A DNA stretch of 64,000 bases from an uncultured Methanoregulaceae archaeon (GCA_963701095.1 OY969564.1:800001-864000), one strand, 5' to 3'. Positions 1 to 45,000 are shown, counted from the first letter of the stretch. Numbers: made by a program.

Positions 1-3000
1 TCGATAGCAGACTACACGTGGACCCGGTTCAACAACATCTCCGGCTTGGTCCCTGGAGTCACGACTTTCGGAAGCGAATTGACCCTTCTGTATTCCCCGT
101 CAGTCATCGCCACTTCCAGCCTTGCTGGCATGGTAAGTTATCTGTGGAATGGAACGACTTTCGCAAGCCAATAGGGGGCACGTTGCAATCAAGCCAGACT
201 TCAAAAGGTGAAAACGATATGGCCTTATATCCTGGAGCACAATGGCGCGGCCCTGTTCCGAATCAGACTACTGATGGCATGACTGGTTATATGTTCGTGG
301 TCTTGCACATCATGGAGGGCACCTTAAAGGGAACGGACGCGTGGTTTCATGACGCCACGTCAAAGGTTTCTGCACATTTCGGCGTTGGTAAGGATGGCAC
401 AGTTTACCAGTGGGTGGACACCAGGGATGAAGCCTGGGCCCAAGCTGGTGGCAACCCCGTGGGCATTTCCATCCAACACGAGGGGTCAGTGCCTGATGGC
501 TTGACTCCCCAGCAAATCGCCGCCGATGGTAAGCTGCTGGCATGGATCTTCAGCACTCATGGAACTCCATTACAGATCACCGATGACCCGGTTCAAGGCA
601 CCGGCATCATCGGGCATTCCGACGGGGGCGCTGCCTGGGGTGGCGACTCGCTCTGTCCCGGCACAAACATCATGGGGCAGCGGCAGGCCATGATCGATGC
701 GGCTGCGCCACAAGTGTCCGTTGTCTCCCCTTCCCTAGGTCTGCCGGGGGGCGGAACAGCGGTCACCGTCACAGGCACAGGCTTCACCGGTGCCACGAGC
801 ATAGCTTTTGGAACGGCCGGCGCATCCAATATGGTCGTGGTTTCCGACTATGAGATCACCGCAGTGAGCCCTGCGGGAAGTGGTACGGTCGACGTACGCA
901 TCACGGGTCCTACAGGAATGAGCCCTGTTACATTATCGGACAAGTTCATCTACAGCACCGGCACTCCAACCATTACCAGCGTAAGCCCGTCCTCGGGTGA
1001 TTTACACGGGGGAACAATCGTCGTCATAACCGGCAGTGGCTTGGCACTGGTCTCAGAGCTGACCTTCGGTTCGACCCCCTGCATCACCTTTAATGTCGAC
1101 AGCGACACCCAGATCACGGCTCTGACCCCACCCGGCACCGGATCCGTGATGCTCGGCTTCACTACTCCCACCGTATGTGGCACATCCGGAACGCTTACCT
1201 TTATCTATACTCCTTCCGTGGCACTACCGCAGATCACCTCGGTCACGCCAATCACCGGAAGCACGGACGGAGGTACTTCGGTTGTCATCACGGGAAGTGG
1301 CTTCACGGGAGTCGTGGCGCTCTCCTTCGGCGCGATTCCCGCGGGGAGCTTCATCATTAATAACGATACCCAGATCACCGCCACGAGCCCCGCGTCCGCG
1401 GCTGGCACCGTTGATCTGTCGGTCACGGGGCTATCTGGCACCTCCACGGCCAGTCAAATGGATCGCTTCACCTTCGAGCCCCCGCCACCTGCCGTCACTT
1501 CAGTCGCTCCTAACTCCGGACAGCAGGCCGGAGGTATAATTGTCACAGTCACCGGCAGCGGCTTCACTGGCGCGACATCGGTAGACTTCGGAGCAGTTGA
1601 TGCACCTGCTTTCACCGTGGCAACTGATAAGCTGATCACCGTCACGTCCCCCGCTGGCTCGGGGACAGTCGACGTCACGGTCATTGGTCCATCGGGTATA
1701 TCGGCAACCAGTGCCGTCGACCAGTTCACCTACATGGCTGCCCACTCAACGCCCGTCATCCAAAGCATCAACCCTGCAACAGGAAATGCGGGCACAAGCA
1801 TCGTGATCACCGGCAGCGGTTTTACGGGTGCGACAGAAGTGAATTTCGGGAGCATAGCTGCGACTTCCTTCACCGTGGATTCGGATGCGCAGATCACTGC
1901 CACCTGCCCCATCGGTGCCAGCACCGTTAATGTGACCGTAACCACGCCCTTCGGTCACTCCACGACCAACGTAGCGGACCTGTTCTCCTACGTATGATCC
2001 CAGACGTATAACTGTGAAAAAAATAACAGGCAAATCAGATGGAAGTATTCTTATGACGAAAAAAAATGAAAATGTAAATTTGTCCACCTCGTCGAACACA
2101 AGCTCGACTGCGGCTAGAGTTGTCCCTAAACTCAACCTACAGCGCATTCCGCTCACGGTTGATCCCCTTGGCCAGCAAGGTGCTTCCCTGGCGAGTACCT
2201 TGCAGCCCTTCCGAATCGCTGCCCAAAGCAAAATTTTCCTGGGGTTTAATCAGATTCAATCGAATCTCGGGAATATCATATCCCTCCTGGCCCAGCCGAC
2301 CATCCCAACCACCCTAACAGGAGTTCTGCTCCAACCGGACGGATCCCTTGCGGTCTCGGTGCAATTACAGTTCGATCCCCAGTCTTATGGCAGTAGCGCT
2401 CAACCTGTGACGACGATCACCGGCGGGCAGGGGGATTTCACCCTGAACGTTCCATCCGGCCTAGCCCTTCCTGCCAGTGGTATCGTACTCACCGCTCATG
2501 GGGCCAACAACAACGCGCAGGTTACGATCCAGGCTCCGCAGATCGCTGCCAATGGGGTGGTAGGTTCCATTTCCCTGCCTGTGCTGCTGCAGGCGCTGCC
2601 GGTTTCCATTCTGCAGTCTCTTCAAAACATCACATCTGGTCCGGGTGTACAGACATCCCCGGCGACTGTTCCCGACCCGGGAGTGTTGCCCACACTGAAG
2701 TTGGGGGAAGCCGGGACCAACGACCTGATCATTCGTGCATATCAGGGCGTTGACAAATATCCATACGGCGTATTCTTCCGCTTGGTCGAACCGCAATTAA
2801 GTATCGTCCAGCAGATCGATCGGGTCGTAGGGGCCAACAACAACTCGTTCTATCCCATGCCGGTGTACAACACCCAGACCGATACCGCCAGTTCCCAGAC
2901 AACGGACTACATCGACCGTATCCCCGTCGAGCAACCTCTGTCGGCAGATGGATTCCGGGAAAGCCTGATGGGTCTTGGCAGTGACGGCCTCTTCGTCGGG

Positions 3001-42000: not shown

Positions 42001-45000
42001 TATCCCGGTGGTGGCGGTGGCGGCTGCTACGGGTTTTATTCTGCCACCTGTTACGGTGGTTCTGGTGGTTCTGGAGGAGGCCCCGGAGGGGGCGGAAATG
42101 CAGGATCTGCCGGAACGGCCGGGTTTATGATTATTGTGGAATGGTCATAATCCTTTTTTTAATAATACATTGTTAAAAACGAATCAATGAAAAACTGTTA
42201 GGCCAACGAAATCGCTGCCGGATTAAAATATTTTTCTAAGTCTAAATCACCTTACAAAACAAATATTTTATTGAGTGAAAGTGTCTCAAAAATTCTTAAC
42301 GCATTTAAATTTTTCATTCAGAGCGTTAATATGATAAATAATCAAATTAGGAAATATGAGTGGCACTCTTGATGACAAGGACATGTGGCAATATGCGCTT
42401 CAACAAGATTTACACATGATTACCGAGTTTGGCTTGGGAATTGTTGGTATAGGTGCATTATTTGTTGCGTACACATCAGCCGACCCCGTTAAATTTCCCG
42501 GCTTACAAGGAATTATCGCAGTTATTGGCCTTGCTGGATCATTGATAATATTTTGTCATATTGTTGAAACTGGATTGGATTTTTGGAATTTTAAAAAAAC
42601 TCTAACGGCCACAAATAGATGTTTCTTTTATAGATTTGATAAATCCCGAGGACAATTGCGGAATTTTTCGTTTGGAAAATTATTCAGGTGTTTTCCTATA
42701 ACTCTTTTAATGGGATATTTCATGTTCATGGTAGCGTTGGCATGGATTGTGTTACTAATCGATCTACCGGCATTTGGAGTTACATTATCACCTTTATTTC
42801 TGGTTTATATTTCCATAGTAGTATTTGTTATGTTTGCAATAGTTTACAATTTAAAAATAAGGGAGTTATGAGATTAAGTTTGCTGTTGTGTTTACTGTTG
42901 ATTCCAATTCTTTACCTCATTAATTTTATTAAATAACTAAAACACACCAGATGAGAAATAATTTATATTCAAATAGCCTTTTCCAGAATATGTATCAAAT
43001 ATCCCCACGTGATTTTTCCCAATTAAATGCTGAAATTAACAGCGAAATTGAGAAAGTCTTATTAAAATTTGTAGCCGACGGGAAAATCAAAATGATTACC
43101 GAGGGAAAATCATTAACATCCTCTGGCGACGGCGAGAAACGAAAAAGAGGCAGGCCACGTAAGGTAAAAATCGAATTGAAAGAGAAAAGACCGCGGGGCA
43201 GACCGCGTAAAATCAAAACTGCTGAAACAAAACCCGCCGACGGTCAAAAACGCAAACCCGGCAGACCGAAAAAACTTGTAATTGCAGAATCTGATCATTA
43301 CGATTGATGGCAGGACATCTCGCATCTTTTAACGTTTTTATTCAGTGTTTATCTCATGACTATGAAAATGAGAATATATAGCGTAAACTTATTAATATGA
43401 ATGATATATCATATTTTGTCTTTATTCATCTAAAATTATAGGAGGTGAACTATTTGACAACGTTGTTAGATTTTTTGTCGATTGGAAAGCAATTAGATGA
43501 GCTGTACGAATTCCTAAAGAAAGTTAAAAGCGATATTAGTGAATACTCTCGGGAATTGTCAAATAAAGAGATAAAACAAGTCCTTAAGGATTTCAAGAAG
43601 GGGGTGGCAGAAACCCATATAATTTGTATTAAAATTATTGAAGCCGACGAAGTTGAAAAACAAATGCTTGGTAAATCACTAAATATAAGCAAAAAAGAAC
43701 GAGAAGAGATTGGCCAAAAAATAGGGTTAATAGCACAAGAATTGGAAAGAATTGTTAAAATCCCAGCTGTCGATCATTTCATAGGAGAAAGACCGGTGTT
43801 ATCAAAGCAGATGTATCGAACTATGAAGATGAGGGCGATGGTAAAGAGGGTATGGTTTGAAGAAGCAGAATCTCTTAAGGCTATTCCTGATGAGGAATTA
43901 TACGATAGGAAAATAAGAATTAAGAATGATCCTACGTATGATATTGAACATGCGTTACAAATCCTTTTTATTAAACACATGAAACAACTGGATAGAAGTG
44001 CTGTGGAATTGATAAAAGTTTTAGATACAACAATTGATTCACTTTAAAAATATGATAGGGAAAATCCCTACAATATTTTGAAAATTGATTTAGGTAACCA
44101 TCATCTAAATCTAAAAAAGTCCCTTTACGGGCTCAATCAATTTCTCATCATCCGCATCCGTTTTGTTTACCCTCTCCGACACCGGGTATGCTACCATTTC
44201 CTCGGCCGGAAACTGCGCAAGGATCCGGTTGATCTCTTCAGCAGGAATCACTTCGCTGGACAACCACCGCATCTCGTCATCCTGTTTAAGGATAACCGGC
44301 ATCCGGTCGTGGAGAGGAGCAACCATCTCATTAGCGGCAGTCGTGATGATTGTATACGTCTGGAGGATTGCACCAGCCGGGTTCCGCCAGGTATCGTAAA
44401 GCCCGGCAAAGCTAAAAACCGGGTCATCTTTTACGTGGATATAGAAGGGAACTTTACGCCTGCCCTCATTTTTCCATTCATAAAACCCACTCGCAGGAAC
44501 AAGGCAGCGTTGGGATTTCAGGAGATCACTGAACATTGGTTTCTCATCGAGATTTTCTGCCCGGGCATTAATGGGCCGGTGCGTTGTCGTGATATCTTTT
44601 GTCCAGTGCGGAACGAGTCCCCACTGCATCATCACTGCTTCTGCCCGCTCATGAGCAACTATAACCGGGTTCGAACTTCCAGGGGCGATGTTGAAGTGAG
44701 ACCGGAAACCGAGTGTCGGGTCGAGAAGTCGGAACCTGCCGCAGAGGTCATCAATACACCAGAGGGAGTACCGGCCACACATGATAAATGGTCTTTATTG
44801 AGTGGGGAGGCATCAAAGTTTGCAATGAACTCGTTGAATTTTCATCTAATTCTAACCAATGCAAAGAATTCGTGTATTACAATTCACCCTGTTTCGCAAG
44901 ATGAACAAATGGATCTACTTTTGTGATGGTTCCATAGCATTGTTCGGAGGCCGCTTTGCATCCTCCCTTACAAATATCTTTCAATTCAGGAGCACACGAA

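Follow-up and report, generated by a model that had tools for sequence, protein, structure and literature searches.

A ~100-nt element that occurs five times in provirus P2 of a peat methanogen seems to serve the virus genes rather than the cargo lodged between them. We judge the chances about even that this element combines terminator, promoter, and start codon in one unit, by which virion expression resumes beyond each cargo slot, and that it marks the point of cargo exchange. It would then be the virus's own compact intergenic unit, acting in the direction of the virion genes, which is the plus strand of the window (i.e., the whole 64,000-nt stretch analyzed here). The genome-wide survey's note had placed the element on the minus strand, and "forward" hereafter refers to that orientation. 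The unit seems to derive from the 373-aa gene at the scaffold/protease position, of which it would comprise the upstream sequence and the initial codons. Copies then seem to have been placed in front of every virion block located after a cargo slot (160-aa gene, tail terminator, and tape measure), where they would restart the virion expression interrupted by inserted, mostly opposite-strand cargo. Its far end is a fixed boundary at which related viruses join different cargo: P2 and the related metagenomic viruses L051 and L052 are alignable over the tail-terminator gene and the element, beyond which they continue into three different cargo sets. Being alike, the copies would also offer homology for cargo swapping and stacking.

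Virion blocks and cargo islands of provirus P2

P2 is a provirus of the siphovirus (tailed) type, whose plus-strand virion genes are split by low-GC islands (Table 1). Matches identified TerL, portal, head decoration protein, major head protein, tail terminator, tail tube, gpT, tape measure, Dit, and Tal, along with an integrase and a tRNA-Thr gene with tandem att repeats. In the block between head and tail genes, a family match was obtained for the last gene alone (129 aa, minor head protein); the tail-terminator gene is split, probably by a 1-nt assembly indel at 32234. The GC content is 0.54 to 0.61 in the virion blocks versus 0.24 to 0.47 in the islands, in agreement with the survey's description. 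The sister provirus P1 of the same genome has an uninterrupted virion block (122995-135853) without any element copy, and its gpT and tape-measure genes overlap by 8 nt, whereas 2161 nt separate them in P2; the P2 cargo thus consists of insertions into the virion module, as had been proposed. G072 and G034 carry distant homologues that are embedded in operons, with a 4-nt overlap, and have no element.

Table 1. Features of provirus P2, in window positions
Feature	Position	Strand	Remarks
Cargo island	5615..7217		No element copy; MazE-like, YCII-like, small ORFs
Virion block	7457..10756	+	HTH/small-terminase-position gene, large terminase, portal
Cargo island	11242..19136	mixed	DarG-like and two unknowns (+), RT_UG5-nitrilase DRT in two ORFs (-), Cas4-like nuclease (-), proteasome/HslV-like (+), 83-aa ORF (-)
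Element copy 1	19165..19268	+ (survey: -)	Found by profile; ATG 19255-19257 is the start of the 373-aa gene
Virion block	19255..21753	+	373-aa gene (putative scaffold/protease, by position), head decoration protein, major head protein
Cargo island	22301..27118	-	PKD protein, PEGA protein, BacA; RNA contigs over 21975-25177
Element copy 2	27190..27291	+	ATG 27278-27280 is the start of the 160-aa gene opening the head-tail intermediate block
Virion block	27278..29364	+	Between head and tail genes: 160, 161, 108, 114, 129 aa
Cargo island	29541..31698	-	Type-2 SerRS catalytic-core-only protein and two unknowns; GC 0.24-0.31
Element copy 3	31882..31985	+	ATG 31972-31974 opens a 17-codon ORF whose TGA overlaps the tail-terminator ATG (32022)
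Virion block	32022..33684	+	Tail terminator, tail tube, tail assembly chaperones G and T
Cargo gene	33771..34475	-	234-aa lipoprotein-like gene with its own GGAGG; RNA contigs over 33967-34538
Element copy 4	34652..34752	+	With coding stub to 34776; duplicate; ~11 codons of tape-measure start, 24-codon ORF in all
Cargo gene	34821..35657	-	Membrane flavodoxin gene; TTTATAAA 35 nt before ATG
Element copy 5	35757..35857	+	With coding part to 35879; ATG 35846-35848 is the tape-measure gene start
Virion block	35846..42150	+	Tape measure, Dit, Tal, distal tail genes
Cargo	42356..44047	+	Low GC, 3' of tail genes; no element copy
Right attachment site	48760..49043	-	tRNA-Thr and three tandem 105-nt copies of its 3' part

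The cargo calls of the survey were confirmed for RT_UG5-nitrilase, Cas4-like, HslV-like, PKD/PEGA/BacA, SerRS-type core, and flavodoxin genes, as well as for NsnA (8.6e-72), HEPN, and GGDEF genes in the part of P2 outside the window; the DarG-like match was weak (2e-6). The RT_UG5-nitrilase DRT matched PADLOC models at 5.2e-134 and 2.6e-106 and Pfam RVT_1 and CN_hydrolase, the reverse transcriptase and nitrilase domains, which are fused in this type of DRT, being split here over two ORFs that overlap by 8 nt. The proposed "mobile defence island" is borne out in part: NsnA and the DRT have a firm defence typing, the DarG-like and Cas4-like genes are matched weakly, and PADLOC returned no match for the PKD/PEGA/BacA, lipoprotein, flavodoxin, and SerRS-like core genes. 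The cargo behaves like morons, which the survey took to be independently transcribed units, in that it is extra DNA relative to a virus of the same gene order (P1 versus P2), differs in GC, and has TATA-like boxes close to its gene starts. Metatranscriptome contigs cover two cargo genes at 100% identity; the sole RNA contig on a virion gene is an odd piece with loose ends (36172-36653). Putative promoters, as judged from TATA-like boxes, precede the cargo ATGs of the flavodoxin gene (-35), lipoproteins (-29/-31), and the gene at 42356 (-29).

Element copies and their signals

A profile search recovered the five window copies reported by the survey (E 6e-30 to 2.5e-37), two of which were also matched by the survey's 26-mer with up to 3 mismatches (0 expected from 100 shuffles). 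The ATG of the element is the first start of the plus-strand ORFs 19255..20376 (373 aa), 27278..27760 (160 aa), and 35846..37642 (598 aa), and the homologue of the 373-aa gene in G061/L045 begins at the same ATG. The short ORF of copy 3 and its stop/start overlap with the tail-terminator gene are also present in the related viruses L051 and L052. At the tape-measure gene, the N termini of P2 and P1 align to within ~3 codons; P1 has GGAGG ahead of a GTG, which the element lacks.

Read on the plus strand, the element begins with a pyrimidine-rich stretch with oligo-T runs that could end incoming transcription, followed by a conserved GATTTTGCCGAATTCAT block, a TATA-like box centred ~27 nt before the ATG (about -29 to -24), and an A/T-rich palindrome, AATATATT, immediately 5' of the ATG. 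No Shine-Dalgarno (SD) sequence was found in the element ahead of the virion ATG, and both this lack and the TATA-like spacing recur in every copy that retains the ATG. Archaeal leaderless promoters have a TATA box centred ~-26/-27 from the transcription start, which lies at or beside the ATG, and no SD. With the element's ATG serving as the initiation codon of the virion gene that follows, virion mRNA would have little or no leader. Across the genome, TATA-like hexamers show an enrichment at -37 to -27; leaderless-type geometry is in the minority, with SD words in ~30% of long ORFs and a TATA excess in only ~4% of ORFs. The first virion gene of P1 carries TTTATAAT at -33, without SD. A BRE/TATA matrix built from the tRNA promoters of this genome scored the element no higher than random windows in either orientation.

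At several copies outside P2, the stop codon of a gene adjoins the end of the element opposite the ATG. This junction was followed by T5-T7 within 0 to 15 nt in h670930, h2362782, L045, L053, and L047, and it recurs at a loose end (34660) of a contig of run X3. Taking a run of at least 5 T just after the stop codon on the coding strand as the mark of an oligo-T terminator, two window copies fall short, with only T4 in copy 5 (35792) and weak oligo-T, absent near the end, in copy 1 (19201).

Outside P2, the genome holds seven further strong copies (E 3e-29 to 1e-11; 680635, 670930, 2362782, 711743, 16968, 703278, and 2083746) and seven weak or partial matches (E 2e-4 to 0.45), in which mainly the distal half is kept; a sequence-only model (R1) gave 16 genome matches, so that the "nine more" of the survey was about right. 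Most chromosomal copies bear stubs of the 373-aa, 160-aa, or tape-measure gene starts. Relic copies retain M-x-x-F-Q-K-[LF]-A..V..EG, the beginning of the 373-aa gene, and the relic at 16968 consists of the element and ~46 codons of the 160-aa gene. Since most chromosomal copies carry such virion-gene stubs, the element is viral and not host-type. Under strict filters, it was found in none of 60 related genomes (36 others of the genus and 24 of the order), and an exact-pattern scan of 185,579 species genomes placed it in one other Methanoregula MAG only.

The survey had itself named a small RNA, a peptide, and a MITE-like repeat as alternatives, and no supporting features emerged for any of them. 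The element consensus folds into 9 pairs with 0 compensatory changes and 0 covarying pairs, and one element subfamily alone folds (z -2.5); in the 64-kb window, two tRNAs were the only Rfam matches to reach the gathering score, which leaves the element outside the known Rfam families. No conserved peptide was found on the forward side, where the ATG is lost in 3 of 12 strong copies. Four copies examined for MITE features showed no consistent terminal inverted repeat, and the flanks common to element subfamilies are coding stubs of differing length.

Competing readings of the element

A divergent two-way promoter, in which the ATG-proximal half drives the virion gene and the distal half (GAATTCGGCAAAATCG...GGAGGGATTGGGAAAAAGG) provides a promoter or 5' leader for opposite-strand cargo, appears unlikely, even if several copies are placed as it would predict. 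Of the 12 strong copies, 6 or 7 have a gene on the other strand at a distance of 29 to 323 nt, many metagenomic copies have one within 49 to 106 nt, the distal half alone stands 99 to 125 nt upstream of forward genes at 888587 and 670265, and the palindromic box could act either way. The copy in provirus P3, inverted with respect to terminase and portal and with a mutated ATG, precedes an 853-aa low-GC cargo gene by 59 nt. However, a credible forward gene is missing at 5 of the 12 strong copies. In the related genome G061 (C7; also L045), the element heads the 373-aa gene homologue, and the gene reached on its forward side is a convergent one of 932 aa, entered at its 3' end. In P2, the end of the element is 104, 183, 190, and 323 nt from the next minus-strand gene (the distances given by the survey were correct); overall, the spacers between element and cargo vary from 49 to 323 nt and contain TATA-like boxes of their own, and the lipoprotein gene's RNA contig extends to 34538, which leaves ~120 nt to the element. 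The survey's "several right before PAS-kinase genes" overstates the case: copy 711743 and partial copy 888587 lie just upstream of receiver-GAF-PAS genes, with a kinase ATPase domain found only in the gene at 711875, whereas copy 703278 is 1.1 kb upstream of a third, in which this domain is present. The first two genes are paralogues whose common upstream sequence continues for ~130 nt past the element, so that they represent a single event. Several observations also run counter to the restart unit: the inverted P3 copy with its mutated ATG, the forward genes found after 6 or 7 strong copies, the partial copies with the distal half alone ahead of forward genes, the random-level score with the tRNA matrix, the weak oligo-T of copy 1, the minority status of leaderless-type geometry in the genome, and the single odd RNA contig on a virion gene.

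Rather improbable, in our view, is a mainly recombinational feature, at which cassettes would be acquired, exchanged, and stacked by way of repeated homology or by some unknown recombinase acting on the element as its site, with any role in expression being secondary. In P2, L051, and L052, the cargo breakpoint falls within a few nucleotides of the far end of the element. A direct repeat of 119 nt (34658-34776 and 35761-35879, 96% identical) encloses the flavodoxin gene, an arrangement that a single crossover or an unequal exchange would leave. Units bounded by the element are present elsewhere as well: the element-flavodoxin-element unit is 93% identical to G061 C46:9823-11014 with different flanks in the two genomes, and arrays of element then gene occur in L049-L052 and G061 C46. 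Peat contigs have loose ends at 34660 and 34690. Against this, the direct repeat includes ~32 nt of tape-measure coding sequence, so the duplication was segmental, with no fixed cut site; element subfamilies share flanks of different lengths, and conserved terminal inverted repeats or hairpins are absent. A Pfam scan of the window revealed no recombinase in or beside its arrays, and the sole integrase detected belongs to the tRNA att site, ~32 kb away from the closest copy of the element.

The survey's own reading, in which every minus-strand cargo cassette is headed and accompanied by a portable host-type promoter-leader, is very improbable: the flavodoxin unit shared by two genomes, the arrays, and the P3 copy, which with its cargo gene is oriented opposite to the virion genes, speak for it, but the ATG of the element coincides with virion-gene starts, the element stays on the virion side of the tail-terminator slot while cargo changes, cargo genes have promoter-like boxes of their own, and neither the element's distribution (0 of 60 relatives), its loss of the forward ATG, nor its want of a conserved peptide or fold fits such a leader.

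Relation to known cargo systems

The restart unit suggested here recalls T7-type class promoters, in which one conserved promoter sequence is reused before several virion transcription units; the putative promoter of P2 would be of the archaeal TATA-type leaderless kind and is tied to cargo slots, and uninterrupted relatives lack the element. The cargo resembles phage morons, which are extra genes of differing GC inserted in a late operon; morons have their own expression signals and are active in the prophage, as the P2 cargo may be. The moron known as HK97 gene 15, between the tail assembly chaperone and tape-measure genes (PMC3594210), occupies the same slot as 33685-35845 in P2. Described morons carry their own promoter and terminator and retain late operon read-through. 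In contrast, P2 has at least four slots in one virion module of an archaeal provirus, mostly with opposite-strand cargo, each followed by a repeated ~100-nt unit adjoining the next virion ATG. P2-like prophages and P4-like satellites have fixed positions between conserved genes with variable, partly defensive cargo (PMC9122126); the slots described here lie inside the head-tail module and are marked by one element, and their cargo is only partly defence-typed. The Tai/Ati non-contiguous operon of phage phi80 likewise has a cargo gene in the late region, its expression being affected by late-operon transcription, and the available text of that report presents no counterpart of a repeated restart element (PMC11364771).

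Integron cassettes with attC sites are similar in forming arrays of single-gene units, between which a ~100-nt repeat recurs in constant orientation, and in varying their content on a fixed platform. They differ in that the element lacks the conserved imperfect, bulged hairpin of attC and no integron-type integrase was found beside the window arrays (window Pfam); moreover, the repeats include virion-gene coding stubs, and cargo occurs in either orientation with promoter-like boxes of its own. Speculatively, and with a low probability, the element may be where cassettes dock, at a fixed point, in an exchange system of archaeal tailed viruses, whose cargo would be captured, stacked, and moved between slots and into the chromosome by recombination at the element. 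If so, each insertion would automatically bring a terminator, a promoter, and a start codon and so maintain the function of the virion genes downstream, and the arrangement would amount to an integron-like platform inside the structural operon of a virus.

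The repeated element and its two ends

The five minus-strand copies of the ~100-nt element lie where the genome-wide survey's note had placed them, and that observation as a whole (element copies, cargo islands, and provirus) was confirmed. A profile built from these copies recovers all five (E values of 6e-30 to 2.5e-37) and finds seven further strong copies in the genome, a single contig of 2.63 Mb with a GC content of 0.48, together with seven weak or partial ones in which mainly the distal half is kept. Window positions 1 to about 48,800 belong to a tailed provirus, of which they form the right part. 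At the left end of this provirus is a tyrosine integrase, and its right end is formed by a tRNA-Thr gene and, after it, three tandem 105-nt att copies of the 3′ part of this gene (48760-49043), suggesting repeated integration events at one att site. Plus-strand virion genes have GC contents of 0.54 to 0.61, whereas those of the intervening islands range from 0.24 to 0.47.

Features of the provirus and its relatives (window positions unless a locus is named)
Feature	Position	Strand	Assignment or remark
Element, five copies	19165-19268; 27190-27291; 31882-31985; 34652-34752; 35757-35857	-	orientation of the survey's note
Large terminase	7918-9276	+	Pfam/PHROGs
Portal	9290-10756	+	Pfam/PHROGs
373-aa ORF	19255-20376	+	begun by element ATG; scaffold/protease position, directly before decoration and major head genes
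Head decoration protein	from 20381	+	Pfam/PHROGs
Major head protein	from 20854	+	Pfam/PHROGs
160-aa ORF	27278-27760	+	begun by element ATG
Tail terminator	from 32022	+	Pfam/PHROGs
Tail tube	from 32516	+	Pfam/PHROGs
gpT-like chaperone	from 33259	+	Pfam/PHROGs
Tape measure	35846-37642	+	begun by element ATG; Pfam/PHROGs
Dit	from 37642	+	Pfam/PHROGs
Tal	from 38542	+	Pfam/PHROGs
Cargo: RT_UG5-nitrilase DRT, split	13826-16907	-	two ORFs overlapping by 8 nt (15663-15670)
Cargo: type-2 (methanogen-type) SerRS relative	29541-30290	-	249 aa, catalytic core only
Cargo: Cas4-like nuclease			
Cargo: proteasome-like protein			
Cargo: DarG-like			weak match
Cargo: PKD, PEGA, BacA			
Cargo: lipoprotein			234 aa
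Cargo: membrane flavodoxin			
Cargo: NsnA, HEPN, GGDEF	outside window		
Surface-protein genes stopping exactly at the far end of the element	L045 6083-8881; L053 3473-4468; L047 2-751; own genome 671038-672114		IPT/TIG or adhesin-like, some ending in ...FLFRKNGN

On the plus strand the element, which contains a AATATATT box, ends in TATATTCAATG, and the ATG of this end is the first start codon of three ORFs (Table). The ATG of the copy at 31972 begins a 17-codon ORF, and the TGA of this ORF overlaps the tail-terminator ATG; both the ORF length and the stop/start overlap are kept in two related metagenomic contigs. Four of the five window copies thus head a virion block. The copy at 34652-34776 is a duplicate that includes the first ~11 tape-measure codons, so that the flavodoxin gene is bracketed by a 119-nt direct repeat (96% identical). 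No Shine-Dalgarno (SD) sequence precedes the virion ATG of the element, and a TATA-like box (CTATAAT or GATATAA) is located at approximately -29 to -24 from it, matching the geometry of leaderless archaeal promoters. Across the genome, positions -37 to -27 from first ATGs show a modest enrichment of TATA-like hexamers, and SD-led genes are far commoner. With a BRE/TATA matrix trained on the tRNA promoters of this genome, neither direction of the element scored above random, and the matrix was uninformative as to promoter direction (best scores of ≤7.6 in either orientation versus a random 90th percentile of 7.2).

At the far end, opposite the virion ATG, the stop codon of a gene on the virion strand abuts the element in two chromosomal copies (670930 and 2362782) and three metagenomic loci (L045, L053, and L047), with T5-T7 within 0 to 15 nt after the stop codon in these five copies. 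The loose end of a peat-metagenome contig at 34660 has the same junction. Along the virion strand, the element is therefore a complete intergenic unit that extends from a stop codon to a start codon. Several genes upstream of the far end encode surface proteins (IPT/TIG, Kelch) with a C-terminal anchor. The surface-protein genes listed in the Table have a stub of the 373-aa gene after them and resemble provirus cargo retained in the chromosome. We give roughly an even chance to the reading of the element as a viral unit of terminator, promoter, and start codon that works in the direction of the virion genes, restarting virion blocks after cargo slots and marking the boundary of cargo exchange. 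By restarting each block exactly at its start codon, such a unit would allow the virus to tolerate opposite-strand insertions in its head-tail module.

Other identities of the element were discarded. A small RNA or riboswitch found no Rfam match and no covariation, and on each strand two of three copies fold no better than shuffled sequences; the predicted consensus fold has nine pairs with no compensatory change, and a strong hairpin is confined to a single subfamily. The element lacks the terminal inverted repeats of a MITE. A forward-strand peptide starting at ATGAATTC was likewise rejected, as frames and stops differ among copies and 3 of the 12 no longer have the forward ATG.

Cargo genes and their own promoter-like boxes

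All the cargo named by the survey's note was recovered, including the genes outside the window, and its description of these units as morons was supported. "Mobile defence island" proved too strong a label, since defence typing covers only some of the cargo. The DRT split may be real or may reflect a frameshift or an assembly error. The SerRS-like protein matches residues 310-485 of PDB 3w3s (E value of 6.5e-21), and the PDB search returned type-2 SerRS catalytic cores only; it has no tRNA-binding domain and adjoins two unknown genes with GC contents of 0.24 to 0.30. A short motif, GGCTCTGTAGAAATC, occurs at 5949-5963 (a cargo boundary), at ~35705-35719 (the spacer before the flavodoxin gene), and at 52151-52165, outside the provirus. 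As a separate repeated motif, GGATTGGG was not significant (7 matches versus 3.8 expected; 9 of 100 shuffles reach 7).

Several cargo genes carry TATA-like boxes of their own at leaderless-type distances: TTTATAAA at -35 of the flavodoxin gene; a common GGAAAAnCGTTAT[AT]GA at -29/-31 of two lipoprotein cassettes; and a box at -29 of the gene at 42356. The 234-aa lipoprotein gene has GGAGG, and some 110 nt upstream of it stands a TATA-like box. Metatranscriptome contigs that match the window exactly cover the PKD gene and also the lipoprotein gene, the latter up to 34538, ~120 nt short of the element, which is only a hint that cargo is transcribed without it. These RNA data are contigs that show neither ends nor strand, and virion genes devoid of them give no sign of silence.

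Some arrangements count against a role in the virion direction, as does the outcome with the tRNA-promoter matrix. A gene lies within 29 to 323 nt on the forward side (toward cargo) in 6 to 7 of the 12 strong copies. In P3, a related provirus at about 2069-2112 kb of the same genome, the terminase and portal genes are followed by a copy inverted relative to them, 59 nt before a low-GC (0.30) 853-aa gene. Copies reduced to the distal half stand upstream of a receiver-GAF-PAS gene and a small membrane-protein gene. A promoter firing both ways would be served by such neighbors; given the boxes that cargo genes have of their own, we hold it to be unlikely. Paralogous receiver-GAF-PAS genes of this genome (704485-715543 and 888740-890113) have in common ~130 nt upstream, including the distal half of the element, and the fragment seems to have been duplicated together with the gene; the two full-length genes scanned contain a HATPase_c kinase domain.

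The element and its boundaries in related proviruses

P1, another related provirus of this genome (about 100-156 kb), has a tail module 58 to 82% identical in amino acids to that of the window, and the profile search of the genome found no element copy in it. Its gpT gene overlaps the tape-measure gene by 8 nt, within a virion block (122995-135853) that is uninterrupted, so the 2161 nt that separate these two genes in the window represent an insertion. The P1 tape measure starts within about 3 codons of the window's and is preceded by GGAGG, and the first P1 virion gene after cargo lacks an SD and has TTTATAAT at -33. P1 also carries cas genes and CRISPR-like repeats (139.6-151.5 kb) between the tail genes and a PolB fragment.

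Under strict filters, the element model had no match in 36 other genomes of the genus and 24 of the order. In an exact-pattern scan covering one genome per species, the element appeared in one other Methanoregula MAG only (G061), with five strong copies amid scattered provirus fragments. On its contig C7, a homologue of the 373-aa gene starts at the element's ATG, and a convergent 932-aa gene directly adjoins the forward side with its 3′ end. Of 107 other genomes of the genus, 2 encode distant homologues of the 373-aa gene; these belong to operons, have a 4-nt overlap, and lack the element. Metagenomes yielded 16 more copies on 11 contigs, several of them redundant. In IMG/VR, the exact-pattern scan gave 0 matches (an earlier one gave a single chance match, unscored by the element model), the major-head-protein query none, and the tail-tube query only 33%-identical loci.

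Metagenomic loci L051 and L052 share a tail terminator-tube-G/T block with the window's provirus (83 to 94% identity). All three align from the tail terminator through the element and, within a few nucleotides beyond it, diverge into three different cargo sets, so that related viruses hold different cargo at the same boundary. A mainly recombinational role, which would speak to this junction, we judge improbable. Joints from 19263 to 27437 and from 22151 to 25784 in peat contigs, resting on a single contig apiece at a likeness threshold of 90 and with sides of 58 and 30 nt, were too weak to use; the breakpoint at 27437 does recur in G061 contig C70. Comparison with peat contigs also revealed 1-nt indels at 21553, 21760, 25240, 27697, 29310, 32234, and 33088, which are probably assembly indels in the window; an extra G after 32234 (three of three DNA runs) would fuse two tail-terminator ORFs into a ~131-aa gene, as in L051 and L052.

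Most other copies retain only stubs of the starts of the 373-aa, 160-aa, or tape-measure genes, and a host-type promoter-leader for cargo, as the survey's note had proposed from copies beside cargo and host genes, is thus not supported and appears very improbable. The stubs suggest instead that "host" copies are provirus relics or domesticated cargo, and that the element originated upstream of the 373-aa gene, as its leading region, before it was copied elsewhere.

Significance of a proposed virion-directed unit

The gpT/tape-measure insertion occupies the slot of HK97 gene 15, the original moron (PMC3594210). Morons, prophage hotspots (PMC9122126), and non-contiguous late operons (PMC11364771) are related bacterial concepts. 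The available portions of the literature on Methanoregula and methanogen proviruses and on archaeal-virus morons contained no description of this architecture. Among bacterial phages, late operons that contain cargo have been described; the way in which a virus tolerates several opposite-strand insertions in its head-tail module is not well understood, least of all in archaea. If confirmed by transcript mapping, the terminator-promoter-start reading would provide a defined, compact archaeal terminator-promoter-leaderless-start module and a marker for cargo slots, including those of defence genes, in methanogen viruses, and would explain how provirus cargo such as surface proteins came to be domesticated in the chromosome beside an element stub.
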